From positions 3,956-67,955 of the forward strand of contig MHSA01000021.1 in the NCBI GenBank assembly GCA_001821135.1: DNA of 64,000 bases. The letters are read 5' to 3'. The first letter of the stretch is position 1. Each line of letters opens with the position of its first letter. Under the pieces are notes generated by a model, which was given only the letters and a program-made list of their open reading frames with translations, searched no databases and had not been told where the DNA came from. The position numbers and the translations under genes were made by a program. Source of the stretch: Candidatus Taylorbacteria bacterium RIFCSPLOWO2_01_FULL_48_100. GTDB taxonomy: Bacteria > Patescibacteriota > Minisyncoccia > Phycocordibacterales > UBA10002. Of the stretch, positions 10,966-58,207 are shown one piece after another.

Positions 10966-11075
10966 TACTAATATACTAATGCATACCAATCTACCAATGA
11001 CTACCAATAAAATTCGTTTCTTATTCGTAGACATTCGTATCATTAGTATAATTCGCAGATTAGTATTTATTAGTA
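10966..11075. repeat. TACGAAT-nonamer palindromic element (family R2), full copy
   Basis: Left arm of tandem ~9-nt units (catactaatatactaatgcataccaatctaccaatgactaccaataaa), a short spacer, then an inverted right arm (…attcgtagacattcgtatcattagtataattcgcagattagtatttattagtatc). It lies directly upstream of the ATG of 9882-10955 (start at 10955). Confidence 0.75.
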
Positions 11076-12035
11076 TCAAAATGTAATCATTGTTCTCGCT
11101 TCTCCAAACTGAAACATCGCTTTTGGATTGGTTACCTCAACACTAATATCCGCGCTTCCCGCAGCGCCTTCTTTTCTAAACACAACGCTCTCATCATTTG
11201 GCGAGCCGACCTTTAGATTATTGAGCGTCCAGTTGTATTGTAGAAGTGGCGCGTCTGCTTTGTTGAAAAAGAATGGTTGTGCCGCAACGCGGATTTCCGG
11301 TGCCGTAAGCGTAGTGCCCCTCGCAAGCGCTTTATTCCACAATATGCCGTAGAGCGGATTGTCTTCGTACAAAATAACTTGCGGCGCAGTTGCTTCGGCG
11401 ACTATACGCGCTTCCGCCACCGCGCTTCCGTCAGGCGATTCCACTTCCACCGTTATTTCCGTCGGGCGAAACGGCACTTTTGCATAAAAGGTGAAAATAT
11501 CTCTTCCAACCCCCGACGAACCCTCCGGCACACGGTCGGCAATGCGCCAAGTGTATTTAAGCATTTTCGGGTTGGCGCGCGCGCTCGCGGCACCTGCAAA
11601 AAACGGAACCGCGGCAATCCGCGTCGCGCCGTGGTAAGAAAAGAGCGTCTTGCCTAGGTAAAAAGGCGGAGCGGTGCCGTCCGATTCTGCAACAAGAAGC
11701 ACCGACGCCGGCGAGAGGTTTATTGTTTTTTCTATCATCTCTTCTAATTCAGACATCCTCACCGTCAGCACTGTTTTAGAGCCGAGCTTGCCGGTGCGAA
11801 ACGACGCGCTCGTTTCCCCCTTCCCCTTCCGCACCGATACGCCATTGATTAGCCATTGTATTTCCACATCTGCCGCGCTCCCGCCGCTTAAAATGTGAAG
11901 CGACGCTTGCACGAGCGTATTCGGTCCCGGCTTTTCCGGCGAGAGGTTTATCAGTATCGCGTCAGCGGAAGGCGGCAGCGCGGCAAAAGCAGGTGTCGCA
12001 ACGAGGAATATGAAGATGTATAGTATTTTTTTCAT
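11076..12035 (-). CDS. Hypothetical secreted protein (signal peptide, beta-rich)
   Basis: Signal peptide MKKILYIFIFLVATPAFAALP. No recognised family. Stop/start overlap (ATGA) with the upstream small membrane-protein gene. Confidence 0.4.
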   Translation of the reverse strand: MKKILYIFIFLVATPAFAALPPSADAILINLSPEKPGPNTLVQASLHILSGGSAADVEIQWLINGVSVRKGKGETSASFRTGKLGSKTVLTVRMSELEEMIEKTINLSPASVLLVAESDGTAPPFYLGKTLFSYHGATRIAAVPFFAGAASARANPKMLKYTWRIADRVPEGSSGVGRDIFTFYAKVPFRPTEITVEVESPDGSAVAEARIVAEATAPQVILYEDNPLYGILWNKALARGTTLTAPEIRVAAQPFFFNKADAPLLQYNWTLNNLKVGSPNDESVVFRKEGAAGSADISVEVTNPKAMFQFGEARTMITF

Positions 12036-12376
12036 ACCTTTTTCGGCATTTTTATGCCGGTTTTATCTTCCAATTGTACCACAAGCACCGTGAGCGCGAC
12101 CCCAACCGTTATACAAGGCAATATATTGAGCACTGGAATCGCCTCAATAATCGCAGAGCCGAAAAACGAAGCCGCGCGCTTAGGGTTCACAAACCCTACT
12201 CCGCGGCTCAAAAACCAAAATCCAAATGTGAGGTACGCAATAATTGACACAAGCACGGCGAGCACTTGTCCCAATAAAGGGATAAGATTTAACCCAGCAT
12301 TTACGGCATCAAACAAAACAGCAACCGCAACCATAACAACGCCGGTTGTTTTATCAATTCTAATTTCTTGTTTCAT
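12032..12376 (-). CDS. Small three-TM membrane protein; start moved to MKQEIRID because the upstream Met lies inside the R2 repeat
   Basis: About 114 aa and hydrophobic. Part of the T4SS-like locus. Function unknown. Confidence 0.35.
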   Translation of the reverse strand: MKQEIRIDKTTGVVMVAVAVLFDAVNAGLNLIPLLGQVLAVLVSIIAYLTFGFWFLSRGVGFVNPKRAASFFGSAIIEAIPVLNILPCITVGVALTVLVVQLEDKTGIKMPKKV

Positions 12377-12383
12377 AGAAATT

Positions 12384-12490
12384 ATATATACCAATATACA
12401 AATGTATACCAATCTACAAATGGATACGAATAGGAACAGGAAATATTAGTAGTCATTCGTATAATTCGTATCATTGGTATATTGGTATTA
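12384..12490. repeat. R2 palindromic element, full copy; its right terminus (…ATTGGTATTA) supplies the TAA stop of the VirB4-like gene
   Basis: ataccaatatacaaatgtataccaatctacaaatggatacgaata…attcgtataattcgtatcattggtatattggtatta. The stop codon of 12488-14305 sits at 12488-12490, inside the repeat terminus. Confidence 0.75.
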
Positions 12491-14305
12491 CGCGCTTGCG
12501 CGCAATTCTTCTTTTGCGCGTTTAATCGCTAAGAGTTGCGACGGGTCGGAAGTGATAATCTGGTCTTCTGTGTAGGATGCAACAATTTTAATCGCGACAT
12601 GTTTCAGCCCGACGAAAAAGAGTCCCTCCCCCACATCCGATTCAAGCAAAAGATATTTTTCCTCATCGGTCAGGTTGAATACTTTTTGTATGCGGTCTAT
12701 CACTGCGGGTGATTGCTTCAGAAGCATTTGGATAGACGAGTTCGTTACAATCGGCAATCCATACGGAGAGGAAAGGAAATCGTCCACATCTTGCGTAATG
12801 GTCGCAACACCTAAAAAGTATTTGCGTCCGCGCTTGGCGACAGAAAGAAGAAATGAGGCGGTATCTTCCGAGCGCATCATCCACCACGCCTCATCCACGA
12901 CGAGGAGCCGTTTTTTGAGATTTCGGCGCACGGCGTTCCAGATGTGGTGTGTAACGATGTAAGTTGCGACCGATTTTAGTTCGTCTTCCATATCCCGAAG
13001 GGAAAATACGACAAGATTGCCGTTTATGGACACATTGGATGGGCGATTAATAAAGTTTGCCCAAGTGCCTTTTGTGTATTTGGTAAGCCGCACACGGATG
13101 CTCTCTGTCCCCTCCATTCCCGCAAGCACCATTTCAAAATCAGACAGAAGCGGCGGCTCGGTTTTCCCGAAGTCAGAATCAGGCGTAATGTCTTTAAGCG
13201 CGTAGGTCTCGGTAATCGCTCGGTCCACTAGTGCGTCTTCTTCCGGTGTAAGCCCGCCCAGCATTATGCGAAAAAGCCCGACGAGCGAGATAATGTGCGA
13301 GCGCAAAATGTCCGCAGGCGATTCATCCTCGCGCGGCAAAGGCAAGTCAAACGGGTTGATGTGGTGTTCGGAAGTGAGTGAGATGGAAAAGAACTTGCCG
13401 CCGACCGATTCCGCGAGAAACTCATACTCTTTTTCCGGGTCAATCACAATCACTTCCGTATCAAACATCAGTGTTCGTAAGATTTCCAATTTCATCATAT
13501 AGGACTTGCCGGCGCCCGACTTCGCAAAAACGACCGAGTTGTAGTTTTCCAGCGAGAAGCGGTCAAACAAAACAAGCGAAGAATTATGCCTATTTATGCC
13601 GTACAAGATTCCTTTGTCGGAAGTTAAGTCAAACGAAATGAATGGGAAAATTGAAGAAAGCGGTCCAGAATTAAGTTTAGAATGTACCAGAAGCTCGTCC
13701 GATGCTGTAGGCGCAACCGAACGAAACCCCTCCGCCTGCTGAAAGAGTGCCGGCTTCATATACACGAGTTTCGCTTCCATAATGGACTTCACTTCGCTCT
13801 CAATTTTTTCTAATTCTTCTTCTGTGTCTGCGTACAGCGTAATATATAATCCAACATCAAAAATCTTTTCTTGCGCCTGTTGCAGTTCATCGCGAAGCTT
13901 TTCCAAGTCCTGATACGCGGTCTCAAGCATCGGGTCGCGCACAAACCCTTTTTCTTCGCGCGTGTGGATTTGGCTCTGCACCTCCGCGACTTTTTTCTGG
14001 AACTGCTTCAGCACTTTTCCCGTTTCAACAGGATGTACGAAAATAGAGACATCAAACACTTTATCAAGATTTATAATCGGCGAAAACCAGCCGGCGGTTA
14101 GGAAGCGCGGATAGGAGATGACGAAATAGGTGCGAGCGATTTTCTCGCCCATATTGAGCGTCTTCGGCGTGATTTTGAGAGCCGCGGGCGCGAGCACATC
14201 GCGCAGTTCCAAAACCCCCGACTGGTAAATCTGTTCGGGCAGTATCGGCGTAATCTCGCTCTCGCCACTTTGTTTTTTCTTTTTGAATAGGTCTAGTATG
14301 TTCAT
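12488..14305 (-). CDS. VirB4/TraC/CagE-family type IV secretion ATPase
   Basis: 605 aa. Walker A FAKSGAGKSYMMK and Walker B LLVVDEAWWM (the DEAW motif characteristic of VirB4-like ATPases). Domain order is typical of VirB4/TrsE/PrgJ. Confidence 0.75.
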   Translation of the reverse strand: MNILDLFKKKKQSGESEITPILPEQIYQSGVLELRDVLAPAALKITPKTLNMGEKIARTYFVISYPRFLTAGWFSPIINLDKVFDVSIFVHPVETGKVLKQFQKKVAEVQSQIHTREEKGFVRDPMLETAYQDLEKLRDELQQAQEKIFDVGLYITLYADTEEELEKIESEVKSIMEAKLVYMKPALFQQAEGFRSVAPTASDELLVHSKLNSGPLSSIFPFISFDLTSDKGILYGINRHNSSLVLFDRFSLENYNSVVFAKSGAGKSYMMKLEILRTLMFDTEVIVIDPEKEYEFLAESVGGKFFSISLTSEHHINPFDLPLPREDESPADILRSHIISLVGLFRIMLGGLTPEEDALVDRAITETYALKDITPDSDFGKTEPPLLSDFEMVLAGMEGTESIRVRLTKYTKGTWANFINRPSNVSINGNLVVFSLRDMEDELKSVATYIVTHHIWNAVRRNLKKRLLVVDEAWWMMRSEDTASFLLSVAKRGRKYFLGVATITQDVDDFLSSPYGLPIVTNSSIQMLLKQSPAVIDRIQKVFNLTDEEKYLLLESDVGEGLFFVGLKHVAIKIVASYTEDQIITSDPSQLLAIKRAKEELRASA

Positions 14306-14309
14306 AAAA

Positions 14310-14421
14310 TATCTATACCAATATACTAATGATACGAATTATACGAATGACTACGAATAAAAATTCTTTGTTTACATTGGTAATCATTAGTAGATTGGTA
14401 TGCATTCGTATATTGGTATTA
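14310..14421. repeat. R2 palindromic element, full copy; its terminus supplies the TAA stop of the 14419-15045 gene
   Basis: taccaatatactaatgatacgaattatacgaatgactacgaataaa | aattctttgtttac | attggtaatcattagtagattggtatgcattcgtatattggtatta. It lies directly upstream of the VirB4-like start at 14305. Confidence 0.8.
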
Positions 14422-15045
14422 AGCAACTGCCGCGTGCTGTTCCTCGCCAGGGTTAAATAATTTATAAAACAATTCTATTTCCTCGTCTGTGCCGAGTCGC
14501 GCGGTGCGGAGACCGCACCTCGTCAGCCCCTGCTCTACGATAGAAATGCGTTGTTCAATCTGAGTTCTATTTTCGTTGAAGTCGCTCGTTGCCGCGGCGG
14601 GCGTTTGGTTTTTACGCCTGAGCCCTATCGGCAGCCCACCTTTGAGTTTCACTGGTGTAGGCGAATACGGCACGACTATGAAAAATGTTTTGGACATAAT
14701 AGCCGTGCTTTCCGTAAACGAGCGCACAAACTCTATATACTCGCGCGTCTGAATTTTTAGAAGTTCCGTCTGTTGCGCCTTCACGCGCGTTTCAAGAAGC
14801 GCGATGTAGGGTCTGACATCAAACCGCCGCGAGTGAATAACGATTTGTGCAGAAAAGTCCAGCGTGTTCAAGAAGTTTTGGAATTGCAAAAGAATCGCCT
14901 CTTGATTGTCTTCTGATTTCAGCGCGAAGTTGACGGAAGACACCATAAGAACAGCGCGCAGCCCACCATCGCGTAGGACGAGTATGCCGTCGCGAATTTC
15001 CGAAATCGGCACAAATTCCTGAGTTGGTTTTGTTTTTGGAGGCAT
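14419..15045 (-). CDS. Hypothetical soluble protein; its N-terminal region resembles the N-terminus of the adjacent VirB4-like protein
   Basis: 208 aa with no TM. The block PISEIRDGILVLRDGGLRAVLMVSSVNFALK parallels PEQIYQSGVLELRDVLAPAALKITPK in the VirB4-like ORF. It may be a VirB4 N-domain-like accessory protein. I cannot name a family. Confidence 0.4.
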   Translation of the reverse strand: MPPKTKPTQEFVPISEIRDGILVLRDGGLRAVLMVSSVNFALKSEDNQEAILLQFQNFLNTLDFSAQIVIHSRRFDVRPYIALLETRVKAQQTELLKIQTREYIEFVRSFTESTAIMSKTFFIVVPYSPTPVKLKGGLPIGLRRKNQTPAAATSDFNENRTQIEQRISIVEQGLTRCGLRTARLGTDEEIELFYKLFNPGEEQHAAVA

Positions 15046-15048
15046 AAA

Positions 15049-15100
15049 GTAAATATACGAATATACAAATTATACGAATGATACGAATGTCTACGAATAA
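15049..15100. repeat. R2 element, left arm only
   Basis: atatacgaatatacaaattatacgaatgatacgaatgtctacgaataaaa. It lies immediately upstream of the 14419-15045 start. The matching right arm is at 15493-15540, with the GxxExxY gene between the two arms. Confidence 0.7.
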
Positions 15101-15107
15101 AACTATA

Positions 15108-15524
15108 TCATAATTTTATCTGTCGTATTCGCTCAATCCGCACGATTCTTCGTGGTTTAAGTAGTTTTTCACGAAAATTCACCAACAAACCAAGCCGCAA
15201 CTCAGTTTGTTGTAAGTAATTTTGGATTTGCCTAAAATCCTCTCTTAATAATAGCCGTTTTGCTTTTAATTCCAAAACGACCTGATTCTCTATAAGAAAA
15301 TCAAGGATGTTACCTCCGGTTCCGATGGCTAATTCTCTTTTGTAGTTTATATTTTTTTCTTTAAGATATTTCTCTATTGCATCAGCGTACTGTTTTTCTC
15401 TTGCATACTCGCCGAGTTCATTATGTGCAGCAAAACATATGCCAGTGAGTATGTATGAAAGTTCCGGAAACAGTAGTACTGGCTTTTTGTTCCTATTAGT
15501 AGACATTAGTAGATTAGTATTCAT
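15108..15524 (-). CDS. GxxExxY-family protein (the four-helix-bundle family typical of 23S rRNA intervening sequences)
   Basis: The sequence …PELSYILTGICFAAHNELGEYAREKQYADAIEKYLKEKNINYKRELAIGTGGNILDFLIENQVVLELKAKRLL…FRQIQNYLQQTELRLGLLVNFREKLLKPRRIV matches the GxxExxY / TIGR04256-like pattern well. The annotated N-terminus (MNTNLLMSTN…) is a translated R2 repeat, so the true start is uncertain. Confidence 0.65.
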   Translation of the reverse strand: MNTNLLMSTNRNKKPVLLFPELSYILTGICFAAHNELGEYAREKQYADAIEKYLKEKNINYKRELAIGTGGNILDFLIENQVVLELKAKRLLLREDFRQIQNYLQQTELRLGLLVNFREKLLKPRRIVRIERIRQIKL

Positions 15525-15540
15525 TCGTATATTGGTATTA
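15493..15540. repeat. R2 element, right arm only
   Basis: ctattagtagacattagtagattagtattcattcgtatattggtatta. Together with 15049-15100 it forms one palindrome interrupted by the GxxExxY gene. Confidence 0.7.
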
Positions 15541-15945
15541 CTATTTTCTGGTGGTGGTATGCGAAATGTCCAGCGTCCATGTTAAGTCCTTCAACTTTCC
15601 TTCCGTCAATTTTGGAATAGTCGGCGGGTTCGTGTTTTGCGCAGGACTTTTCGCGGATGGCGCGCGCGGCACTTTACGCCATAAGTACAATTTTTCCGAC
15701 AAGTAATAGCGGATGGCGGATTCAAGCACAAAAACAAACGGCTTGTTGTTTATTTTCCAAAACGCGAGCGCGAGCGCGAGCGCGGCGACTGGCGCAATAA
15801 TGAGAATTGCGACGATAAACGGCAAGAAGCGGTAGAGAATAAAAGAAAGCCCCGCTCCGCCGACAAGGTAAATGAACTGCTTGACGGTGAGCGGTCCAAA
15901 CAGGCGGTCTTCTATGTCTATAAATTGCGGGGTTTGATAACGCAT
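15541..15945 (-). CDS. Small two-TM membrane protein, possibly VirB3/PrgI-like
   Basis: 134 aa. A hydrophobic hairpin (…LVGGAGLSFILYRFLPFIVAILIIAPVAALALALAFWKI) followed by a hydrophilic tail. It lies adjacent to the VirB4-like gene, as VirB3/PrgI genes usually do. Assignment rests on topology and context only. Confidence 0.3.
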   Translation of the reverse strand: MRYQTPQFIDIEDRLFGPLTVKQFIYLVGGAGLSFILYRFLPFIVAILIIAPVAALALALAFWKINNKPFVFVLESAIRYYLSEKLYLWRKVPRAPSAKSPAQNTNPPTIPKLTEGKLKDLTWTLDISHTTTRK

Positions 15946-15952
15946 ATGCGTT

Positions 15953-16062
15953 TTATACCAATATACTAATGTTACTAATGATACGAATGTCTACGAATAA
16001 AAAATCTCTGTTTCCATTTGTAGTCATTGGTAGATTGGTATGCATTCGTATATTGGTATTAT
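15953..16062. repeat. R2 palindromic element, full copy; supplies the TAA stop of the 16059-17138 ORF
   Basis: ataccaatatactaatgttactaatgatacgaatgtctacgaataaaa | aatctctgtttcc | atttgtagtcattggtagattggtatgcattcgtatattggtatta. Confidence 0.8.
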
Positions 16063-17138
16063 TCTATTGGCTCACGATAAGGGTCTTTTGGATAATTACT
16101 CTGTGTTGATGTTGATTGTGGCGAATAATTTGGCGCGGCAATCGGCAAGTTTTTCGGCGGTTCGGTGGTTGGTGCAAATCGGTACTTACCTTCTGTTTTT
16201 TGTTCCTGTTCTTTCCCCGTCTTATTTGTAGCCATTTGTAGATTAGTATTCATTCGTATATTGGTATTCATATTTCTCAAAATCTCCCGCACTGGCCGCA
16301 AAATCTCCATATTCACCACTTGTCCAACCGCCATCGCGCGGTCGCGCGGTAGGCGCAAGCGGCGCGTGAGGTTGTCTACAAAATTCACCGGCTGTGTTAG
16401 CCCCAACATAACAAGCCCCGCCTCGCTCACCAATTCTCCCGTTTCTTCCACATTTAACCCGAACTTTTTCGCCACTCCTTCAAGACGAGATAAAAACCCA
16501 ACGCTCTCCAGCGACTGCTTCACTTCAATCGGCGTTTTGCGGAACGCGTCGTTTATTCGGTTGTCGTCGTACGCAGTGCCACGTTTGATATCGGAGAGAA
16601 GAGTTTGTAGCGTATAGCGTGTAGCGTGTAACGTAGATTCGGGGGGAGTGGGTAATTCTTTGCGGATGAGAACGGGGCGAGGAGGGGCTGGGGGTAAGTT
16701 GGTAAGTTTGGAAGTTTGTAAGTTGGGTGGCGTAGTAGTTGGTTTTGTTTCTGTTTTATTCGTAGACATTCGTAGATTAGTATTCATTCGTATATTGGTA
16801 TTAATATTGGTATTAAAAATCTCTTTTTCAACTTCCCCCGCAATCGCCCGCGCCTGCTCGGGCGGCAATAATAATTCACTCGCGAATTCGTTTTCTGCTT
16901 GTTTTGTGTCAATGATCTGTAGAAGTATTGCGCCTACTATGTAATTAAACTTTACTCGCTGTTCTTTTGATAGATTATGTTTTTCTGCAACACGAACAGT
17001 CGCCGCTGTTGCTTCTGGCGAAGTAATATAATCCTGCGTATCTTGCGGTAATTTTTTTAACGCCCTTATTTTTTCTTCGTTTGTAAATTTCATATTTTTA
17101 TTATACCCAGAGCGTTGCATTGACTGGATTTGAAACAT
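16059..17138 (-). CDS. Uninterrupted 359-codon frame that runs in-frame through two R2 half-elements; either one protein with repeat-encoded NTNIRMNTNL(R/Q)M segments or 2-3 small genes separated by repeats
   Basis: The translation contains NTNINTNIRMNTNLRMSTNK and NMNTNIRMNTNLQMATNK exactly where R2 half-copies lie (16757-16815 and 16233-16270). The first 13 codons overlap the VirB6-like gene, so the real start is probably MKFTNEEK… near 17093. Confidence 0.3.
   Translation of the reverse strand: MFQIQSMQRSGYNKNMKFTNEEKIRALKKLPQDTQDYITSPEATAATVRVAEKHNLSKEQRVKFNYIVGAILLQIIDTKQAENEFASELLLPPEQARAIAGEVEKEIFNTNINTNIRMNTNLRMSTNKTETKPTTTPPNLQTSKLTNLPPAPPRPVLIRKELPTPPESTLHATRYTLQTLLSDIKRGTAYDDNRINDAFRKTPIEVKQSLESVGFLSRLEGVAKKFGLNVEETGELVSEAGLVMLGLTQPVNFVDNLTRRLRLPRDRAMAVGQVVNMEILRPVREILRNMNTNIRMNTNLQMATNKTGKEQEQKTEGKYRFAPTTEPPKNLPIAAPNYSPQSTSTQSNYPKDPYREPIE
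16233..16270. repeat. R2 element, right-arm half copy embedded in a coding frame
   Basis: catttgtagattagtattcattcgtatattggtattca. Confidence 0.6.
16757..16815. repeat. R2 element, right-arm half copy embedded in a coding frame
   Basis: ttattcgtagacattcgtagattagtattcattcgtatattggtattaatattggtatta. Confidence 0.6.
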
Positions 17139-19023
17139 AAGCCAACTGAGCAGCTTGCTCGGGATATGCCACAGCCCCAGTTATTTCGTTCAATATCGCT
17201 GTTATTTCATTCGGCATAAGATTTCCATTTTCCATAAGATCGCGAAGATGTTGCGGTCGCATCCTTCTAATTATATCTGGATTGACGCGTGCTTCATGAG
17301 AAAGTTCTCGCGCTTGGTTTGGACGAAGTATTGCAACGCGCCTATCCATTTCTGCGTGTGTTATTGGTGGTGCACCTGCCACTGGTGGTGTCGCAATCGC
17401 TTCAATTTCAGTAAGGCGTTGTTCGTTTTGTGTGTCTCGTTCCACATTTCTCCGCGCCTCACGAACTTTGTCTTGTTCTTCCGGTGTCAGACGGTTGTAA
17501 AGACCTGTTATCTGTTCTGGTGAAAGAGTACCGGTTCTTTCTAACGCCACCCTATCTCTTGCCGAAAGTTTCTCATACGCTTTCCTGCGTTGGCCTTCTG
17601 GAAGGTTTGCGAGGTATTGCGCCTGCATGGCTGGGTTATTGCGGAACCCTTTCATTGTTTTTTCTACTTCTTCATCGCCCACTGTGCCGAAAGTACCCTT
17701 CTCCTGCATTTCTTTGTAACTTTTCCCACCGATTTTCATTGACTGCAAGCGGTCGGCGGTGCGAAGAGCCATGCGTGCAAGCGGGTTGGTAGACGCTTTT
17801 AGCGCATCGCTGTTTGTCGCAGCGCGCGCAAACCCTCCAATCGTGCGCGCCGCGACGCCCCCCGCAAGTCCGGTAACCGCTCCCTGCCCCCATTTGCGGA
17901 GACCTTGCCCCCAGCCCATTACCATAGAGCCGCCGTATGCTCCCATATTTTTTGCGATAAGGAGTGTCGCGGCAATGGCGACAATGAGAATCAAATAGTT
18001 TATAACAATCCCGATATTCCCCGACGATTCGGATGTCATCAGCGCGGCAAATGACGCTTCGTTGTTTTGGATTTTCAAGAGTTCCGCCATACCGCCGCTC
18101 TGAATCGCATTGGCGACCGCGTAGTTAAGCGCCATATATACTGGGGCGAAAAATGTATAAGAAAAAAGCGCGTGCCACCATTTATCCGTATGTGATTTCA
18201 TTCCGGGAAAAACCCACGCCACAAACGCGAGCGGCGCGAGAATCATCACAAACATCAGCACCACAGCGCGGACGATAAACAGCACTGCGGCGGCGAAGAA
18301 GATGAACGCAGTAACAAGGAAGAATACCGAGCCGAGAATAGTCGCAAGCCCCACTTTCATAAAATTGTCGGCAAACCCGCCCGCCGCCGCCATAGCATCT
18401 GTCGTTGTTTGCCCGCCTCTCGCATCCATCACGCTCTGGAGTCGCAAGCCCTCCATATATATATCGGAGAGTCCCGCTTTTTCAGTTGTTTCTACGCCGT
18501 TGACGATGAGGTTAGGCCGCATTGCGTCGTAGAAGTGAAGCGTCGCAATGTTGCCTGCGTCAATAATCGCTTTGGTGATAAAGAGCGAGAAGTTTATCAG
18601 AAGCGCCATTATGATTACATTCAGAAGCAGTTTCTTTATTTCCCCTCCACCAAGCCCGAGAATAGTCCGTATGCCTATCCAAAGTAAAATAAAAATGAAG
18701 CACAGGTTTGCAATGTCGCGAAATACCGTCCAGCCGACAGACACAATCGGCACTTTCTCTATCAATTCGCCAACTCTGCCGATGCTGAGTTCCACTGAGG
18801 CATTCAGTATTGCGCCGGATATGTTCAACACTTTGGAAACAATCGTAAGAACGATGTTGCCTAAGTCGGCGAAGACGCTCGTAATCACATCATGCCAGCC
18901 CATCGCGCCGATAATTTTACCCGCGACATACCCAACGGCACCTTCCTGCGCAAACGCAACTCCCGCGCCGATCGGCGCCAGTATCATTCCAGCAAGCACT
19001 ATGATGATAAGCAGTTTTTTCAT
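17101..19023 (-). CDS. VirB6/TrbL-like polytopic membrane protein with a long hydrophilic C-terminal domain
   Basis: 640 aa. Signal peptide, at least six TM helices in the first ~400 aa, and a Gly-rich segment (GWGQGLRKWGQGAVTGLAGG). The C-terminus is charged and alpha-helical. It sits in the same operon as the VirB4-like gene. Family call is by topology and context. Confidence 0.4.
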   Translation of the reverse strand: MKKLLIIIVLAGMILAPIGAGVAFAQEGAVGYVAGKIIGAMGWHDVITSVFADLGNIVLTIVSKVLNISGAILNASVELSIGRVGELIEKVPIVSVGWTVFRDIANLCFIFILLWIGIRTILGLGGGEIKKLLLNVIIMALLINFSLFITKAIIDAGNIATLHFYDAMRPNLIVNGVETTEKAGLSDIYMEGLRLQSVMDARGGQTTTDAMAAAGGFADNFMKVGLATILGSVFFLVTAFIFFAAAVLFIVRAVVLMFVMILAPLAFVAWVFPGMKSHTDKWWHALFSYTFFAPVYMALNYAVANAIQSGGMAELLKIQNNEASFAALMTSESSGNIGIVINYLILIVAIAATLLIAKNMGAYGGSMVMGWGQGLRKWGQGAVTGLAGGVAARTIGGFARAATNSDALKASTNPLARMALRTADRLQSMKIGGKSYKEMQEKGTFGTVGDEEVEKTMKGFRNNPAMQAQYLANLPEGQRRKAYEKLSARDRVALERTGTLSPEQITGLYNRLTPEEQDKVREARRNVERDTQNEQRLTEIEAIATPPVAGAPPITHAEMDRRVAILRPNQARELSHEARVNPDIIRRMRPQHLRDLMENGNLMPNEITAILNEITGAVAYPEQAAQLAYVSNPVNATLWV

Positions 19024-19029
19024 AAGTGA

Positions 19030-21195
19030 TTATGGGACTTGGATGTTGATGGTACTTACTGCACCAGAAATCTGAATTCCTGCAGTATCTGTAATTTCGG
19101 TTATAAGTCCGTAAGTTTCTCCTCTTGTTGCACTCGTAGGCGTAAATTCATATCCAACCGCAATCCGTTCTCCCGCCACTACATTAAATGTTTTTGTGGT
19201 CTTATAAAATCTCGGTTCATTGTTTACGAATTCTTCTTCAAGTTTTATTTCACCAGTCGTTTCATTTTTTACTCGCACAAGAATCTTTGAGAATTCTTGA
19301 CTAGGCGCAAAGTCCTTAAATACCCCGTTTTCCTTTTTCGTTATCATAACGCCAATCCGCGCATTGCTAAGCGGCTCGTTTATTGTGAATGCAGCGGCAT
19401 CCGTTTTTACTTCCACATTTACGCTCGCCGTGAGCGTCGGTGTAGTGTTTCCTCCTGTTCCTGTTGTTGCAGATGTTATCGGCGGCGGCTCTGCCGTAAC
19501 GCCCGACTGCGGTACCATACTCGCTGCATTGCCTTGTGTAGCTTTGCCGAATACTTCAACTTCTGCAATAGCAAGGGGGTGTACATCGCCAATATCAACT
19601 ATCCGTACATATCTACCCCTTTTAATGTTTGTGGTTTTAATGGAAAGTGTGTCGCCTGTAAAGTCCGAAGCGTTGTACTCTTTAGCGAATAGCACGGTTA
19701 ACGGGTCCGCGCCGAGGATTTCCACCTTGAATTTTCCTTGATTTAGCGTGTTTACATAAGTGCCCCAAGTTCCAACCGTCTTCCAGTCGCCTGTAAGACG
19801 ATAAATGACAATCTCGTTTATTTCATCAACTACCCATCCTTGTATTTTACTTGTTGCGTCAGTTTCAAGATCAACTCTCCAATAATTACCGCTTGTGCAA
19901 GCGAATGAGCCATAATAGATACTCCCTACTGCTTTTTGATTATTAACTGCCGCTTGTGCAAATGGGTCCTGCACTGTTATTGCTCCGAGCCTATCGCAAT
20001 TATCGAGTTGCGCCGCTTCTTTTCCTAACGCAATGTTCCCCGTTTTTATTTCAGAAAGAGATGTTACTCCGCCAGCTCCCGCGCTTCCTACTCGCTTGTT
20101 TATTTCCTGCCTCGTCGGGTCTATAGCGTTTGTCCCTGCCGTGTTGAGTAGCGCATCGTCTCCTTGATTTCCTTGTCGCTGTATTCGATCTTGTACTGTC
20201 ACAAAACTCTCTCCTGTTACAGTTACGCTCGCCTTGCTCGCGCCGCGGAGACCGCCTCTCGCTGACGAGAACACCTGTCGTAGCCCGTAATTCACGAGCG
20301 CTTGAAATACTTCGTTGATTTCGTCCGCCACCTCAAACTTGCGAAGTTCCGAACCAAACACATTATTTAGTTGGCCGTTTATAAGAGAGCCCGGAGTTTC
20401 CACTTTGTATTTAAGGCACACTTTCGCGCTGCCCTCCCCCGTTCCTTCGTTTGGACCCTCCGACCAATCAGTACATTTTTTATATGACAAAAATCCTCTT
20501 CCTTCAGAAAGCTCCCGCAGTTTTTCATTGGTTTTCCGCATAAGTTCCGTATTAAGCGCGTCGGATGCGAGAATGTACGCGCCGAATTGGTTGTTGCGCG
20601 GGTCTGAAGTAAGCGCGTGGAAGGTGTTCCACCCGCCGTTTGCGATAAACCCGCCACCCGTGAACGCACCATACGCATTCTTTTGAATATCAGTCAGGCG
20701 GCAGCCGATGTATTGCTTGCGCGATGAGCCGGTAGAAAGCCATAAGTTGAGCCGCAGGCGCAAGTCAAACGGACTGCAGAGGAGTTGCCCGATGCCCCCC
20801 AATTGCGTTTCAATAAAGTTTCCCGCAGTTATGTCCGCTATATTGGTGAAGAATCCTGCGGGGTCGGTTACGAACGCCGGGCCCCCCTCAAAATCGCTGT
20901 TTATCCAATCCACAATAGAGCCGGTAATTTCGTTAATAAGCGCTTCTTTGAGAAAAGTTACCAATCCGTCCAGAATACACTCTTTGGTGGTTTGCGAAGA
21001 TTGTTGGAGATTCCCATAGGATACTTGCAAAGCGACAGCGGCGTCGTAACTTGGCACAAAAAGTCCGAGAGGTGTCGGCGGCGGAGCAAATGGTATACAA
21101 CTAACAACCGCGTGAACGCGCTTGGTTGGTACAAAAAGCGCGGGAACTGCGATAGCGGTAGCAAGAAAGAAAATTGTAATTTTTTTCCAACGCAT
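19030..21195 (-). CDS. Large secreted protein (721 aa) heading the T4SS-like locus; function unknown
   Basis: Signal peptide MRWKKITIFFLATAIAVPALFVP. Cys-containing, with a C-terminal beta-rich / Ig-like region and a Thr/Pro-rich segment. Confidence 0.4.
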   Translation of the reverse strand: MRWKKITIFFLATAIAVPALFVPTKRVHAVVSCIPFAPPPTPLGLFVPSYDAAVALQVSYGNLQQSSQTTKECILDGLVTFLKEALINEITGSIVDWINSDFEGGPAFVTDPAGFFTNIADITAGNFIETQLGGIGQLLCSPFDLRLRLNLWLSTGSSRKQYIGCRLTDIQKNAYGAFTGGGFIANGGWNTFHALTSDPRNNQFGAYILASDALNTELMRKTNEKLRELSEGRGFLSYKKCTDWSEGPNEGTGEGSAKVCLKYKVETPGSLINGQLNNVFGSELRKFEVADEINEVFQALVNYGLRQVFSSARGGLRGASKASVTVTGESFVTVQDRIQRQGNQGDDALLNTAGTNAIDPTRQEINKRVGSAGAGGVTSLSEIKTGNIALGKEAAQLDNCDRLGAITVQDPFAQAAVNNQKAVGSIYYGSFACTSGNYWRVDLETDATSKIQGWVVDEINEIVIYRLTGDWKTVGTWGTYVNTLNQGKFKVEILGADPLTVLFAKEYNASDFTGDTLSIKTTNIKRGRYVRIVDIGDVHPLAIAEVEVFGKATQGNAASMVPQSGVTAEPPPITSATTGTGGNTTPTLTASVNVEVKTDAAAFTINEPLSNARIGVMITKKENGVFKDFAPSQEFSKILVRVKNETTGEIKLEEEFVNNEPRFYKTTKTFNVVAGERIAVGYEFTPTSATRGETYGLITEITDTAGIQISGAVSTINIQVP

Positions 21196-23391: not shown

Positions 23392-23450
23392 GTAGATAAA
23401 CATACGAATATACGAATGATACGAATCTGCGAATGGCTACGAATAATACA
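23391..23450. repeat. R2 element, left-arm half copy (overlaps the last codons of rsmA)
   Basis: agataaacatacgaatatacgaatgatacgaatctgcgaatggctacgaataatac. Confidence 0.6.
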
Positions 23451-24219: not shown

Positions 24220-24325
24220 AATACCAATATACGAATGCATACTAATATACAAATAGATACGAATAAAGATAGTGAGCATTCGTAGTCATTCGTATACATT
24301 CGTACCATTTGTAGATTGGTATATA
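24220..24325. repeat. R2 palindromic element, full copy; directly upstream of the rsmA start and encoding the last ~14 aa and stop of uvrD
   Basis: aataccaatatacgaatgcatactaatatacaaatagatacgaataaagatagtgagcattcgtagtcattcgtatacattcgtaccatttgtagattggtatatatc. The uvrD C-terminus …DIYQSTNGTNVYE* is read from the right arm. Confidence 0.75.
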
Positions 24326-39501: not shown

Positions 39502-40020
39502 TTATCTTTTCCCATACCCCATCAAGTATTTGCGCGGAGTGTCATCAAGGTCGGTAAACTCGTCCGCCGCCTCAATAAGTTTCGCAGAGGTTGATTTTCC
39601 AAACGCAACAATTTCCACCTGGCACCCCTCGTTTATTTTTAAGTATTCTACAAGCGGAATGAAGTCGCCGTCGCCGGAGAGAATAATCACGGCATCCACC
39701 TTCGGCGCAAGTTTCACTGCATCTATCGCAAGCCCGACATCCCAGTCCGCTTTTTTCGCGCCGCTTCCGAATATCTGCAAGGGCTTCGTCTTTGCCTCAA
39801 TGCCGACTTTTGCAAGTGCCTCAAAAAAACTTTTTTCTTCCCCGCTTTCGGTCGTAATCACATACGCAACCGCGCGTATAAGCGAGCGCCCCGCGAGCGC
39901 GTCCTTCACTACCTGCCCGAAGTTCACATTCGCGCGGTAGAGATTTTTCGCGCAATGGTATAAGTTTTGGGTATCAATAAATACCGCCACGCGCTGATTT
40001 TTGTGTTTTATAATACTCAC
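39502..40020 (-). CDS. NYN/LabA-like (PIN-like) domain protein
   Basis: …RVAVFIDTQNLYHCAKNLY…AVAYV…DWDVGLAIDAVKLA…DAVIILSGDGDFIPLV… matches the LabA/NYN pattern. Located between rpsO and pnp. Confidence 0.6.
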   Translation of the reverse strand: MSIIKHKNQRVAVFIDTQNLYHCAKNLYRANVNFGQVVKDALAGRSLIRAVAYVITTESGEEKSFFEALAKVGIEAKTKPLQIFGSGAKKADWDVGLAIDAVKLAPKVDAVIILSGDGDFIPLVEYLKINEGCQVEIVAFGKSTSAKLIEAADEFTDLDDTPRKYLMGYGKR

Positions 40021-45707: not shown

Positions 45708-46424
45708 ATGAACTCACAAATGGCTAAAATATATTCTGCACTACGGTATATGCTCACGCCGCAAGAGGGTGGGAATGTGCTAACCAGTTCCGCTGAAGAT
45801 CTTATTAAAGATCTCAAACCGGGACCGGAAATCATATCTTACCAAGGCAATCTACAGGCTGCCTCCACTGCTGTTCTGGAAACTGAATGTGTATCGCAGG
45901 AACTCATCGATCTGGTACTTGAAAAGTATTTTGATGCGATAGGTGGATACACTTCCGAATCACCCGTCATTTGCGGTACGAAATATTCCGAGGCGGATAG
46001 GCATCGTATGTTGGTGTATGGAATGTCTCGTCACGGAGTTGTAGAGCGGTTGTGGCTGTGCCGTCAGTTTGAATGGATCAAGAAATTCAGCAAATGGGTC
46101 TATGACGAAGATGAAAGACACGGGCGTCATACCGATGGGAGTGCAAATCTTGCGTACCTTTTTGCGAAATACGCAGACTGGGATCAAAGACCACAGGACT
46201 TCCATGTAACGAGGTTTGTCAAATCAAATCTCAACAAGAAGAACTGCCACTGCGAGTACCACTGGCCGGAAATTAAGAGGATCGAACATGGCGTGTTTAA
46301 ATCCAAGACATGCTTCAAGCAGTGGGCAAATGAGAATGGTCTTAATATCACCCCTGTTAATCCTCACAACCCCGCGGCCTGTCTCTGGGACTTGCCAAAA
46401 AATCTGGTACCAAAACGGCAGTAG
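45708..46424 (+). CDS. Hypothetical 238-aa Cys/Trp-rich protein (start uncertain; the track ORF begins at 45648)
   Basis: No recognised family. Followed by the hairpin ccccgcacagaaatgcgcgggg+ttttgtt at 46463-46494. The surrounding ~1.5 kb (45.1-46.4 kb) has ambiguous coding on both strands. Confidence 0.3.
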   Translation: MNSQMAKIYSALRYMLTPQEGGNVLTSSAEDLIKDLKPGPEIISYQGNLQAASTAVLETECVSQELIDLVLEKYFDAIGGYTSESPVICGTKYSEADRHRMLVYGMSRHGVVERLWLCRQFEWIKKFSKWVYDEDERHGRHTDGSANLAYLFAKYADWDQRPQDFHVTRFVKSNLNKKNCHCEYHWPEIKRIEHGVFKSKTCFKQWANENGLNITPVNPHNPAACLWDLPKNLVPKRQ

Positions 46425-46509
46425 GTCTGCCAAAGGAAAAGGAGTTTATTGTAAAAACTCCCAACCCCGCACAGAAATGCGCGGGGTTTTGTTATGGTAC
46501 AATTTTCGC

Positions 46510-46893
46510 ATGCAGAAAGATTTTGACGGGTGGAATGGTGAGAAAAAACGGGCGCATGAAGAATCTCCACGTTTATATACCGTGCGTGAAATCTGGTGGT
46601 GTCGCTTTGGCGTGAACATCGGAACGGAACAAGATGGAAGCGGAAAACTCTTTTTACGCCCAGCAATTATTGTTCGTGGTTTTGGTTCGGAAACATGCGT
46701 GGTTGTGCCGCTTACCACATCAACCAAAAAACACACTCTCCGTATTCCAATAGGAAGGGTTCAAGGAAAAGAAGCGACTGCACTTTTGTCGCAAATCCGC
46801 GTTATTGATACGCGGCGTTTGATTGAAAAAATCGGGTTTCTTGAGAGAGGTGTTTTTACAAACATAAGAAAAGCCGTCAGAAAGCTGTTCTAA
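46510..46893 (+). CDS. MazF/PemK-family toxin-like protein (solo; no obvious antitoxin)
   Basis: …REIWWCRFGVNIGTEQDGSGKLFLRPAIIVRGFGSETCVVVPLTTSTKKHTLRIPIG…ATALLSQIRVIDTRRLIEKIG matches the PemK/MazF fold pattern (xIW…G.E..G..RPalIV…vvPlTs…). The start was moved to MQKDFDG, after the upstream terminator-like hairpin. Confidence 0.55.
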   Translation: MQKDFDGWNGEKKRAHEESPRLYTVREIWWCRFGVNIGTEQDGSGKLFLRPAIIVRGFGSETCVVVPLTTSTKKHTLRIPIGRVQGKEATALLSQIRVIDTRRLIEKIGFLERGVFTNIRKAVRKLF

Positions 46894-49557: not shown

Positions 49558-49605
49558 CATACCAATATACGAATGATACGAATCTACAAATAGATACGAA
49601 TGATT
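49558..49605. repeat. R2 element, left-arm copy immediately upstream of the HU start
   Basis: acaccaatatacgaatgatacgaatctacaaatagatacgaatgattt. Confidence 0.6.
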
Positions 49606-49699: not shown

Positions 49700-49762
49700 A
49701 TTAATATACGAATATACGAACAATACGAATCAACGAATGGCTACGAATAAGGATAAATAGGG
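49700..49762. repeat. R2 element, left-arm-type copy
   Basis: aattaatatacgaatatacgaacaatacgaatcaacgaatggctacgaataaggataaatag. Confidence 0.6.
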
Positions 49763-52573: not shown

Positions 52574-52813
52574 CTACTTACTTGTCCATACTCGCCACAT
52601 CTTTTTGTTTATTTTTGACTGGCGAATCATTATTTCCAATGTTCTAGGAGGGAAACTCTTTTGTCCGTGGAAATTTATATTTACAACCGCGCCTGTTAGT
52701 TCATTTACCCAATATTCATGCGAACCCTCGGTTTGCTTGTAAAAAACAAACCCGCGTTCAGACAAAAATCTTGTTACATCGCGATAGGTCCAATTAAAAA
52801 CTCCTCGCGGCAT
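52574..52813 (-). CDS. hicA: HicA-like mRNA interferase toxin
   Basis: …VTRFLSERGFVFYKQTEGSHEYWVN… matches the HicA/YcfA pattern (GSHe). The start was moved to MPRGVF. The upstream track extension is hydrophobic junk. Confidence 0.5.
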   Translation of the reverse strand: MPRGVFNWTYRDVTRFLSERGFVFYKQTEGSHEYWVNELTGAVVNINFHGQKSFPPRTLEIMIRQSKINKKMWRVWTSK

Positions 52814-53087
52814 AGGGAGTAATAAGGAAATGATAAGGTGAACGAACTCGCTTCCTCCCACTCGTTGCAATAACGGCTTGGCGATATTTATCCCAGTATT
52901 CCTTTGGAGCATGTCGATTCAGCAAATCATCATTCATATTAAGTTTTCGCACTACTTTCAAATACCCTTCCGCCGCTTCAACGATACTTTCCATCAATGT
53001 GGCTGGGTCATTTCCCTCCTCGATAATATCTAGCGTCAAACAAACCCCTACATAGGTTTTGCCGTCTTTGTACACCAAAAACTCCAT
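52794..53087 (-). CDS. hicB: HicB-like antitoxin
   Basis: MEFLVYKDGKTYVGVCLTLDIIEEGNDPATLMESIVEAAEGYLKVV fits the HicB N-terminal fold pattern. It overlaps the hicA start by 20 nt. Confidence 0.45.
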   Translation of the reverse strand: MEFLVYKDGKTYVGVCLTLDIIEEGNDPATLMESIVEAAEGYLKVVRKLNMNDDLLNRHAPKEYWDKYRQAVIATSGRKRVRSPYHFLITPYAARSF

Positions 53088-56793: not shown

Positions 56794-56825
56794 AAATAAT
56801 ATCGGGATTGTAGCAGAAAAGACAG

Positions 56826-56855
56826 GACGCGCAATGCGTCCCGTTTTTTGTTTTT
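56826..56855. terminator. Intrinsic-terminator-like hairpin just downstream of nusA (ggacgcgcaatgcgtccc + T-run)
   Basis: 7-bp GC stem followed by ttttttgttttttt on the + strand, with an A-run on the opposite side. Confidence 0.45.
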
Positions 56856-58046
56856 TTATTCTGTTTTTGTTTCTGTGGGGACAGGTTCAGCTTTTTCTGT
56901 TTCTGCCGTGGCGGGTGGCGGCTCTGCGGGTTTGTTTAATGATGCAATATCAATTTTCGCGTTCGTGAGGCGGGCGGCGAGGCGCACATTCTGCCCGCCG
57001 CGGCCGATGGCGAGCGACTGCTGGTCGTCGGCGACAATTGCTTTCACATGCCGCGCGGCTTCGTCCAGCACTTCCACAGAAAGAACTTTTGCTGGAGAAA
57101 GCGCTTCGGTTACAAACTTTTTCAGATTTTCGAACCACTGAATGATGTCTATTTTCTCGCCACCGAGTTCCGACATCACAGTTGAGACGCGCACGCCTCG
57201 GCCGCCGACGAGCGACCCAACCGGGTCTATATGCGGGTCGTTGCTCGCGACGGCAATTTTAGCGCGCGAGCCGGGCTCGCGCGCGATGGCTTTAATTTCC
57301 ACCGCGCCTGACGCGACTTCGGGTGTTTCCTGTTTAAACAGTGCTTCAATGAACTTCGGCGCGGCGCGCGAGAGCCGCAGGTGCACGCCGCGCGGCGTGT
57401 CTTCTACGCGCATAAGGTACGCGCGCACGCGCTCGCCCTGTCGGTACCGCTCGCCCGGAATCTGCTCCTCGTATGGGAGAATACCGGTTGCGCGGCCAAT
57501 ATCTATGAAAATCGCGCCGCGCTCAATTCGTTGGACAGTACCCGATACAATCTCGCCCGCGCGCGTGCCGTATTCGCTGAGCACCGACACCTTCTCCGCT
57601 TCGCGGATTTTCTGAATCACGACTTGTTTGGCGGTTTGCGCGGCAATCCTACCGAAGTCGCTCTTGGTTTCCAGTGGGAAAATTATTTCATCTTCCAACT
57701 GCGCGCCTTTCTTAATTTTGCGGGCGTCTTCTATGAAAATATGGTGTTCGGAGTTGTAAAAAATTCGATCGTCGTCTGCAGCGCGTTCAATTTCCTCGCC
57801 ATCTTCGTTTTCAGAGCGCACAATCACCTTCGTATCATCCACAACTTCCTTAACTTGGAAGAATTCCACTGCGCCGCTTACTGCGCTAAACTTCGCGCGC
57901 ACAATTTGGCCTTTCTTGCCGTACTCTTTGCGGTACGCCGTCGCGAGCGCGGATTCAATCGCTTCAATTACTTTCTCGCGCGGTACTCCGCGCGTTTCTT
58001 CAAGTTCTGTAAGTACCGCGTTGATAGTTTTTAAATCAAAAAGCAT
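56856..58046 (-). CDS. nusA: Transcription termination/antitermination factor NusA
   Basis: 396 aa. N-terminal NusA domain, S1 domain and two KH domains (…GGRGVRVSTVMSELGGEKIDII…). Confidence 0.9.
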   Translation of the reverse strand: MLFDLKTINAVLTELEETRGVPREKVIEAIESALATAYRKEYGKKGQIVRAKFSAVSGAVEFFQVKEVVDDTKVIVRSENEDGEEIERAADDDRIFYNSEHHIFIEDARKIKKGAQLEDEIIFPLETKSDFGRIAAQTAKQVVIQKIREAEKVSVLSEYGTRAGEIVSGTVQRIERGAIFIDIGRATGILPYEEQIPGERYRQGERVRAYLMRVEDTPRGVHLRLSRAAPKFIEALFKQETPEVASGAVEIKAIAREPGSRAKIAVASNDPHIDPVGSLVGGRGVRVSTVMSELGGEKIDIIQWFENLKKFVTEALSPAKVLSVEVLDEAARHVKAIVADDQQSLAIGRGGQNVRLAARLTNAKIDIASLNKPAEPPPATAETEKAEPVPTETKTE

Positions 58047-58049
58047 AAA

Positions 58050-58207
58050 GTATATATACTAATCTACTAATGATACGAATTATACGAATGTCTACGAATA
58101 ATATACTAATCTGCGAATGGTACGAATATACGAATGACTACGAATAAAAAATGAATCTTATTGGTAGTCATTTGGAGATTTGGTATGTATTCGTAATATT
58201 GGTATAA
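58050..58207. repeat. R2 palindromic element, extended full copy directly upstream of the nusA start
   Basis: tatatatactaatctactaatgatacgaattatacgaatgtctacgaataatatactaatctgcgaatggtacgaatatacgaatgactacgaataaaaaatgaatcttattggtagtcatttggagatttggtatgtattcgtaatattggtata. Confidence 0.75.

Follow-up and report, generated by a model that had tools for sequence, protein, structure and literature searches.

The palindromic repeats at the gene boundaries of a 64,000-nucleotide (nt) stretch of the Candidatus Taylorbacteria bacterium RIFCSPLOWO2_01_FULL_48_100 genome (contig MHSA01000021.1, positions 3,956 to 67,955; the whole stretch is called the window below) are built from the same arrays of short tandem units that frame a small nuclease gene, both in the window and across the candidate phyla radiation (CPR, Patescibacteria). 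We favor the interpretation, at a probability of about 0.6, that the palindromes are non-coding miniatures of a small selfish nuclease cassette widespread in the CPR, comparable to miniature inverted-repeat transposable elements (MITEs). The cassette is apparently undescribed. Literature searches on GxxExxY, PDDEXK_3, PF13366, repeat sequences, and CPR palindromes or MITEs returned no description of the element, with the qualification that most subscription journals lay outside their coverage and that a prior description is possible.

A preliminary description made from the letters of the window alone had reported a family of palindromes at gene boundaries, each built of short tandem units, and all three points are correct. 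Each of the 13 coordinate blocks that it gave contains the element. Its list was also complete, as an nhmmer profile built from the window arms recovered 22 arms at significant E-values (7e-15 to 8e-6) and no others in the 64 kb. These arms make up seven palindromes, five lone arms, one extra tandem arm, and one pair with a gene between its members. The repeats are far in excess of expectation for this sequence composition: the heptamer pair TACNAATNTACNAAT occurs 29 times in the window as opposed to 0.00 times in 100 dinucleotide-preserving shuffles, TACSAAT occurs 87 times as opposed to an expected 16.3 ± 4.2, and no arm with at least three units arose across 20 shuffles. Restriction-like avoidance of the heptamer was considered and rejected, with isolated TACSAAT outside the elements found ~13 times where ~16 are expected.

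Each arm consists of five TAC-N-AAT heptamers (at times TGC-N-AAT) spaced by 8, 9-10, 8-9, and 10 nt, in agreement with the units of about 9 nt noted previously. Read from the outside inwards, the arm is (A)TACCAAT-a-TACGAAT-g(ca)-TACTAAT-(c/ga)-TACGAAT-g(ac)-TACGAAT. The element ends are (A)TACCAATATACGAATG, so that a complete copy reads (A)TACCAAT...ATTGGTA(T), and comprises two inverted arms of ~45 nt for a total of 100-115 bp in the seven palindromes. Pfam matches upheld the gene identities proposed for the neighbors VirB4/TraG-like, PrgI, RsmA, UvrD, ComM, the DksA-type zinc finger protein, and NusA; the match for the type IV secretion system (T4SS) pilin is weak, and the HU identity comes from the translation only. 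The preliminary description placed the copies 0-5 nt upstream of the downstream start codon. The distance is usually 8-10 nt, with 0-2 nt found only at comM.

The stop codons of the VirB4-like gene (12488), the TraC-like gene (14419), and a gene of 359 amino acids (aa; 16059) abut the outermost heptamer, and that of the dksA-like gene (35217) lies one base outside it. The uvrD stop (24286) lies within the element, and the last 13 residues of UvrD are therefore element-encoded. The in-frame NTNIRMNTNL(R/Q)M peptides of the 16059-17138 open reading frame (ORF) are also real and are kept in a relative (L127, below). The host proteins that carry element sequence are thus UvrD, with the tail ADIYQSTNGTNVYE ahead of its stop (24286-24330), and the 359-aa T4SS-associated protein with two internal segments.

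A single gene-bearing element of 486 bp has as its ends the two blocks that had been taken for half copies, 15049-15100 and 15493-15540. This is the single full unit of the window (15054-15539), with its paired arms 396 bp apart. Full units in general measure ~440-510 bp and consist of a five-heptamer array, a nuclease gene of 125-140 aa that starts within this array, and a second, inverted array. The window ORF matches Pfam PDDEXK_3 (E 9e-20, 71.6 bits; cut-off 22) and NCBIfam TIGR04256 (66.5 bits; cut-off 35). Translation of this ORF begins within the arm, from which about ten codons (MNTNLLMSTN), the start codon included, are derived; the arm offers two in-frame, inward-reading ATG codons because a “g” follows heptamers 2 and 4.

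The gene product is predicted to be an intact enzyme. The residues D75, E85, and K87 of the PD...ExK signature do not vary among 26 aligned homologues that are 57-77% identical to the window protein, and the structure model has a confident PD-(D/E)XK fold, for which a fold search returned Cas4, Dna2, and BpuSI as the nearest structures. A sequence search of the PDB with the window nuclease gave no significant match. The nuclease did not match any PADLOC defense model, and the reading as a component of a known defense system was dropped for this reason. No relatives of the nuclease were found among viral contigs. A survey of PD-(D/E)XK proteins from 2012 gives the function of the GxxExxY / PDDEXK_3 family as “unknown” (PMC3424549).

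A DNA pattern scan with ATACNAATATACNAATG, using one genome per species, located the same palindromes in at least dozens of Patescibacteria/CPR metagenome-assembled genomes (MAGs). Among the matches listed, these MAGs include members of Parcubacteria, Saccharibacteria, Doudnabacteria, and Jorgensenbacteria, with a few under other labels. Loci found in this way, by DNA pattern and not by protein, include one (L066) in which the arms bracket a PDDEXK_3 gene and another, in a Chryseobacterium MAG (L065), in which TACGAAT arms bracket a frameshifted one. Searching instead with the window nuclease gave 734 homologues at E up to 1e-5, of which most that carry a source name come from the CPR. Exact protein matches lead from the window to MHRR01000004.1 (GCA_001822615.1), and the 100%-identical nuclease bears the source name Candidatus Taylorbacteria, from the Rifle aquifer. 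Nearly all homologues sampled have an arm-encoded N-terminus, examples being MNTNLRMTTNK, MGTNIPIDTN, and MNTNDTNNTNK.

The association of the nuclease gene with the arrays was quantified in 80 metagenome loci found through the protein, which yielded 72 distinct genes with complete flanks. At least three heptamers in the expected orientation were present on both sides of 55 of the 72 genes and on at least one side of 70, as compared with 0 and 4, respectively, of 296 control positions in the same loci. Spacings are mostly 8-10-8/9-10 in the upstream arm (type A) and 8-9-9-10 in the downstream arm (type B), making the unit asymmetric. A subfamily in which both arms are built of TACGAAA forms a contiguous group in the protein dendrogram, and protein identity is 65% among members of the TACGAAA type, 63% among those of the TACGAAT type, and 57% across the types. 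Arm type is co-inherited with the protein clade.

The cassette is not tied to any one operon. Only ~20 of the 80 loci are in T4SS operons, where three different intergenic slots are occupied, and the cassette is mostly in other operons, including one in which it separates the permease gene of an ABC transporter from the ATPase gene. In 43 of the 56 loci having both neighboring ORFs, the cassette is co-directional with both. Within the T4SS operon, the PrgI|TraC junction is filled in the window, L127, and L131 and empty in L170, and the TraC|VirB4 slot, which has a palindrome in the window, is occupied by a full cassette in L170, L195, and L200. A large share of the PDDEXK_3 homologues are found on contigs shorter than 2 kb, as expected if repeated arms break short-read assemblies.

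The structure of the palindromes shows how they relate to the cassette. Every palindrome of the window that could be typed has one A arm (8-10-8-10) and one B arm (8-9-9-10), as does the cassette. Moreover, the palindrome loops GTAAACAAAGAATTTTT, GGAAACAGAGATTTTTT, and AGGAACAGGAAAT match the inner ends of the cassette joined together, these ends being AGGAACAAAAAG... inside the A arm (coding for ...RNKK) and ...TAGTTTT before the B arm. Because both the arm asymmetry and these interior remnants (a loop of ~10 nt + 5 nt) are retained, the miniatures are internal-deletion derivatives of the gene-bearing cassette. Two loop types are each common to unrelated loci, one at 14316 and 15956 and the other at 24222 and 35116, from which it follows that deletion came first and copying afterwards. 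Relative to host transcription, three of the palindromes have the same orientation and three the opposite one.

Copies have been gained or lost between relatives. The T4SS operon of L127 (LCNP01000002.1, Parcubacteria GW2011_GWA2_47_12; L136 is the same sequence) has 82-91% nucleotide identity to that of the window (about 85%). It shares the cassette, orthologues of the palindromes 10964-11077 and 15954-16060, and both in-ORF arms. Two other window copies are missing from it: the TraC|VirB4 junction of L127 reads TAA-AAAATAT-ATG, and its VirB4 gene and the next gene meet in an overlapping ATGA. A third site is empty in L228, a more distant relative with a gap of 1 nt between uvrD and rsmA and a different uvrD tail. 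Filled and empty junctions were read by eye, as MAFFT misplaced the gaps. A contig with 96% RsmA identity was examined as a candidate empty site and rejected because the element is present. The window copies 14314-14421 and 15954-16061 are 90.7% identical without gaps, which exceeds the 81% identity of the latter copy to its own L127 orthologue.

The TraC-like and VirB4 proteins of the window (9000-19500) are 96-97% identical to those of L127. The best RsmA homologue outside the 90%-identity cluster of the window protein is only 71% identical. Given this difference, the T4SS locus may have been horizontally exchanged, or the rsmA gene of the relative may simply be unsampled.

It is possible to outline how such an element could spread. 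Almost the whole nuclease gene would have been lost from a cassette, and the resulting miniatures would then have multiplied in the window genome. The heptamer arrays may serve as iterated binding sites for the cassette's own nuclease, which would assemble on both arms and cut, with the result that the element is moved or copied. Either cut-and-repair or homing-like copying could be the route, possibly via a folded single strand. Insertions would survive almost only in the spacers of a few nt between co-directional genes, in which the nuclease gene could use host transcription and the foldback would keep the upstream stop near the downstream start. The “operon punctuation” that is so conspicuous in the window would be a by-product of where insertions are tolerated and not a designed function.

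Among the interpretations offered in the preliminary description, that of a “cassette boundary” was nearly right, in that an actual gene cassette is framed by these arms. The specific comparison with attC sites did not hold, as the features of attC are absent. A purpose-built punctuation or operator system is not upheld either; for punctuation, relatives lack copies, copies occur in both orientations and in many unrelated operons, and the stems show no compensatory change. The preliminary description also named identity with a known insertion sequence or MITE having target-site duplications as grounds against a regulatory role. The element is MITE-like and apparently undescribed, and no duplication was found. 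The transcribed hairpins may be processed by RNase III as a side effect.

The palindromes are predicted to form long, imperfect stems, for which folding energies range from -24 to -38 kcal/mol and z-scores from -5.4 to -7. The stems are not paired where the heptamer varies. The base N is identical between paired heptamers in 8 of 52 cases (14 expected), and the predicted hairpins have a 1x1 mismatch at every N. RNAalifold on the oriented copies detected no covariation (term -0.08), the predicted pairs being almost all invariant and the repeats slipping register. Since the heptamer is conserved without compensatory pairing, sequence-specific recognition by a protein appears to be under selection and not a helix, and the alignment points to the conserved heptamer, as opposed to the stem, as the part that matters.

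The strand antisense to the cassette gene folds better in 11 of 16 typed palindromes (L005-L233 and the window), including all six typed window copies, in which the advantage is up to 15 kcal/mol irrespective of the direction of host transcription. Native gene spacers are a few nt long and lack Shine-Dalgarno sequences. No terminators were found within the elements, and sigma-70-like promoter matches in the arms are weak. In an Rfam search of the window only four tRNAs reached the gathering threshold, and the region 10800-17000 had no matches at E up to 1. The individual copies are listed in the table.

Table. Positions and settings of the repeat copies and of the cassette gene within the window
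Feature	Position	Strand	Neighboring genes	Details
Palindrome	10964-11077		319-aa gene stop (TGA) / pilin-like gene	A arm 10964-11010, inverted arm 11021-11067 (arm E 7e-12 and 3e-12), extra outer heptamer 11069-11075
Palindrome	12387-12489		VirB4-like stop TAA 12488-12490 / 114-aa gene ATG 12376	Missing from L127
Palindrome	14314-14420		TraC-like stop 14419-14421 / VirB4-like ATG 14305	Missing from L127
Cassette B-type arm, gene 3' side	15054-15099	+		Five heptamers, spacings 8-9-9-10
Predicted PD-(D/E)XK nuclease gene	15108-15524	-		138 aa; PDDEXK_3 / TIGR04256 “GxxExxY protein”
Cassette A-type arm, gene 5' side	15493-15539	-		Spacings 8-10-8-10; holds nuclease start codon
Palindrome	15954-16060		359-aa gene stop 16059-16061 / PrgI ATG 15945	Present in L127 too
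Lone A-type arm	16222-16268	-	Within 359-aa ORF	Translated in frame (NMNTNIRMNTNLQMATNK); kept in L127
Lone A-type arm with extra outer heptamer	16757-16812 (nhmmer arm 16757-16802)	-	Within 359-aa ORF	In frame (NTNINTNIRMNTNLRMSTNK); kept in L127
Lone arm	23401-23446	+	rsmA 3' end	Overlaps rsmA stop codon
Palindrome	24220-24323		uvrD / rsmA	Encodes last 13 uvrD codons and stop; rsmA ATG 2 nt past end
Palindrome	35114-35216		dksA-like stop 35217-35219 / comM ATG 35113	
Lone arm, partner arm decayed	49558-49603	+	HU gene (ATG 49550)	9 nt upstream of HU ATG
Lone arm, partly degenerate	49705-49750	+	Same intergenic region as 49558-49603	E 3e-10
One-and-a-half copy	58055-58206		Histidine-phosphatase gene / nusA (ATG 58046)	Tandem arms 58055-58101 and 58102-58147; inverted, more degenerate arm 58158-58206; palindrome proper 58102-58206

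Several observations weigh against a selfish, nuclease-driven element. To our knowledge, no stand-alone PD-(D/E)XK hydrolase of ~125 aa transposes, and the proposed binding of the nuclease to the heptamers is itself conjectural. Strong purifying selection acts on the nuclease although the genomes are very small, and palindrome 10964-11077 is 95% identical to its counterpart in L127 (9974-10083), where the flanking coding DNA is 82-88% identical; because of these two findings a host-beneficial or domesticated role fits. Signs of recent movement are also wanting: each exact cassette protein was found in a single context, the sampled population contigs have identical elements throughout with no polymorphism, and the closest paralogous pair is the one at only 90.7% identity. 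No target-site duplication could be established, the flanks of 35 palindromes (29 of them outside the window) having no repeat beyond chance when the longer extent of the inverted repeat is allowed for. The two empty L127 sites were compared for the same feature, in sequences that are highly diverged. T[AG]A...T[AG]N flanks, which resemble stop codons, are present at 5 of 8 window copies, and in other CPR subfamilies the inverted repeat reaches 3-9 nt further out.

The distribution of the miniatures is a further difficulty. Only six were found in 410 kb around other cassettes, as compared with seven in the 64-kb window, and since they are so rare elsewhere their expansion is a feature of the window genome. 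Finally, the T4SS operon of L131, another CPR genome, has a gene (3146-3556) for a four-helix-bundle protein of the TIGR02436 / Pfam 23S_rRNA_IVP family (“23S rRNA intervening sequence protein”), which is related to Avd, a protein of diversity-generating retroelements. Inverted repeats of the CTTTTAG type flank this gene, with CTTTTAGGTGTTAGCTTTTAGTT on its upstream and AACTAAAAGCTAGCAACTAAAAGC on its downstream side, making it another small-gene cassette of like design, the cargo of which is not an enzyme. Because of it, the framed protein need not be the mobilizing enzyme.

The main rival is a role at the RNA level that benefits the host, in which the hairpins, once transcribed, would serve RNA processing or stability and so uncouple neighboring cistrons or set their expression, the cut being made by RNase III or by PDDEXK_3 acting as a sequence-specific endoribonuclease. 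The nuclease would then be domesticated and stand to the elements as RAYT does to REP (see below). The stability of the hairpins suits this role, as do the purifying selection on the protein in tiny genomes, the lack of visible recent movement, and the copy that is more conserved than the coding DNA around it. In addition, the genes on either side of every full copy run in the same direction, the upstream one ending at or within the element and the downstream one starting 0-10 nt past it. We consider it rather unlikely all the same, as the close relative L127 dispenses with two sites in the same operon, the cassette mostly occurs without miniatures in other genomes, and the stem has no compensatory changes. 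In addition, the better-folding strand tracks the orientation of the element and not host transcription, with three copies each way, and the elements have no terminator-like signal and only weak promoter-like matches in the arms. A free-standing homing-endonuclease cassette would reverse the order of events, the palindrome being a landing pad or empty target that is cut in or near the loop and the gene being copied in by repair through arm homology. Here the exact position of the gene between A and B arms in every case, and the TraC|VirB4 slot, with its palindrome in the window and its cassette in L170, L195, and L200, are what would be predicted. PD-(D/E)XK homing endonucleases such as I-Ssp6803I exist, and free-standing homing genes typically lie between conserved genes. 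The palindrome loops, however, carry both 5' coding and 3' remnants of the cassette, which indicates deletion from a full copy, and the arrival of palindromes at new sites is not explained by this model. The arms (~45 bp) are short for recombinational repair, and a near-identical pair of filled and empty alleles was not found among the loci compared, leaving homing of this kind improbable.

Iterated operators or nucleoid-organizing sites for a host regulator or chromosome-structuring protein, unconnected with the nuclease, would account for inverted tandem units spaced near the helical repeat, which resemble iterons and ParR or omega-type arrays, and for the lone arms upstream of the HU gene. 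It is very hard to reconcile with such sites that the arrays travel with the nuclease gene over dozens of genomes and change their unit with the protein clade, that they lie within operons and even ORFs rather than in promoter regions, and that the same junctions are bare in relatives. Least plausible of all, to the point where we give it almost no weight, are integron-type gene cassettes with the palindromes as attC sites. Imperfect palindromes bounding short promoter-less genes that are co-directional with their neighbors do recall integrons, but a Pfam scan of ~50 of the larger window ORFs identified no tyrosine recombinase, other recombinase, or transposase; the cassettes are single and scattered in housekeeping operons rather than stacked at an attI site; and the boundaries lack a GTTRRRY core, both arms being tandem heptamer arrays unlike attC. 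CRISPR or TIGR guide arrays were excluded on the grounds that the heptamers are only 1-3 nt apart.

By architecture, the nearest analogues of the nuclease cassette and its miniatures would be repetitive extragenic palindromic (REP) sequences with their REP-associated tyrosine transposases (RAYT), bacterial MITEs (Correia, for example), and the foldback elements of eukaryotes. Those MITEs that have an autonomous parent (Correia/NEMIS of Neisseria, ERIC, RUP, Nezha) are likewise short, non-coding, multicopy, and intergenic sequences with inverted ends that are co-transcribed with adjacent genes, and are likewise internally deleted forms of a longer element that carries a gene and has the same ends. 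Transcribed Correia elements are cut by RNase III. The CPR elements differ in that their parent encodes a PD-(D/E)XK nuclease of ~130 aa, a candidate for the part of a transposase, and not a DDE or other known transposase. Their ends consist of five degenerate heptamers instead of a unique terminal inverted repeat, and they have no detected target duplication. They have no sequence similarity to Correia/NEMIS, ERIC, RUP, or Nezha and no match in Rfam.

REP sequences and their mosaics (BIMEs) are also small palindromes in operon spacers, and in the REPtron a small nuclease-type gene similarly sits between two inverted repeats, with co-variation of protein and repeat and slow, domestication-like movement. 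RAYT, however, is an HUH/Y1 protein of IS200/IS605 type, in contrast to the protein here, for which PDDEXK_3 is the only Pfam match and a PD-(D/E)XK fold is predicted. REPs are single hairpins of 20-40 nt with a 5' GTAG, as opposed to GTAG-less heptamer arrays of 45 nt, and the CPR cassette is found in several copies and many operons.

Inverted ends made of tandem sub-repeats are known from eukaryotic foldback transposons (Drosophila FB) and, as subterminal arrays, from Ac/Ds and En/Spm; the sub-repeats give the transposases of Ac and En/Spm multiple sites to bind. Foldback transposons likewise include many pure foldbacks and a minority with a gene in the loop, although they are eukaryotic, much larger, and use different enzymes. 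We know of no such architecture cataloged for bacterial insertion sequences. Free-standing homing genes (seg and mob of phages; I-Ssp6803I) share with the cassette a small nuclease gene between conserved co-directional genes, presence or absence at a junction, and the lack of a target duplication, but have neither an inverted-repeat frame nor a gene-less derivative. Rickettsia palindromic elements resemble the arms of the 359-aa ORF and the uvrD tail in being translated in frame; they are unrelated in sequence and have no associated gene, whereas most copies here are intergenic.

GxxExxY genes outside the CPR, sampled from isolate records of a plasmid collection, are also wedged into operons, and inverted tandem arrays of other units with a period of ~9 bp were found around them (framed loci L217 521-998, L218, L230 360-825, and L232 190-282 and 778-867). 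The Bacteroides finegoldii gene lies between radA and a gene for a FAD-dependent protein, within inverted arrays CACAGAGGA / CGCAGAGGA (CRCAGAGGA), and the same radA junction is empty in Parabacteroides distasonis (L221), with a spacer of 13 nt. Inverted CACAGAG arrays frame the Bernardetia gene, between ade and the gene for mannose-1-phosphate guanylyltransferase, and inverted CGCGAAG arrays that of Sphingomonas, between fabD and fabG. The Gemmatirosa gene is situated between two complete gene-less palindromes with the CGCAGAGGA unit (CRCAGAGGA). The B. finegoldii and Gemmatirosa proteins, which have this unit in common, are 48-50% identical, and each is less close to the CPR type. Matches of Gemmatirosa to miRNA families in Rfam were dismissed as generic hairpins below threshold. 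The remaining two cases are of a different kind, with one 11-bp inverted repeat in Treponema (hypothetical-protein gene / Fic-family gene) and a 25-bp direct repeat in Fusobacteria bacterium ZRK30 (ATP-binding-protein gene / metal-dependent hydrolase gene).

As a tentative extension, which we think has somewhat less than even odds of being correct, GxxExxY (PDDEXK_3) proteins in general could be the nucleases of unrecognized foldback-type mobile cassettes that span phyla. Each lineage would have its own array of 9-bp period, with TACGAAT or TACGAAA for the CPR, CRCAGAGGA for Bacteroidota and Gemmatimonadota, and CGCGAAG for Sphingomonas. Such cassettes would move or home by means of the stand-alone PD-(D/E)XK enzyme without target duplication, possibly through a folded single strand, colonizing operon spacers of a few nt and spawning palindromic miniatures.

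The selfish-cassette interpretation would explain why a streamlined CPR genome has so prominent a non-coding signal, the regularity of which would reflect where insertions survive. It would also tie a large orphan family, GxxExxY / PDDEXK_3, to a testable role in recognizing the tandem repeats that frame its own gene. If the nuclease mobilizes the element, this would constitute a new enzymatic route to bacterial DNA mobility and would supply small nucleases that are programmable and specific for repeats. The elements remodel gene ends, as in the uvrD tail and the T4SS-protein peptides, and may break metagenome assemblies, both of which matter for the annotation of CPR genomes.

The genes dnaN (4077-5174), dnaA (5387-6733), and yidC (7316-8059) are just left of the T4SS locus, and the cumulative GC skew turns at ~8-10 kb. 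Genes between 10 and 58 kb are mostly on the minus strand, towards dnaA, and all repeat copies are on that side. The window also has four toxin-antitoxin-type genes (28551-29237, 31008-31652, 46216-46893, and 52574-52912), two of them AbiEii-like, one PemK/MazF-like, and one HicA-like, as well as an NYN-domain gene (39502-40020) and four tRNA genes (42.5-43.4 kb and 49.1 kb).

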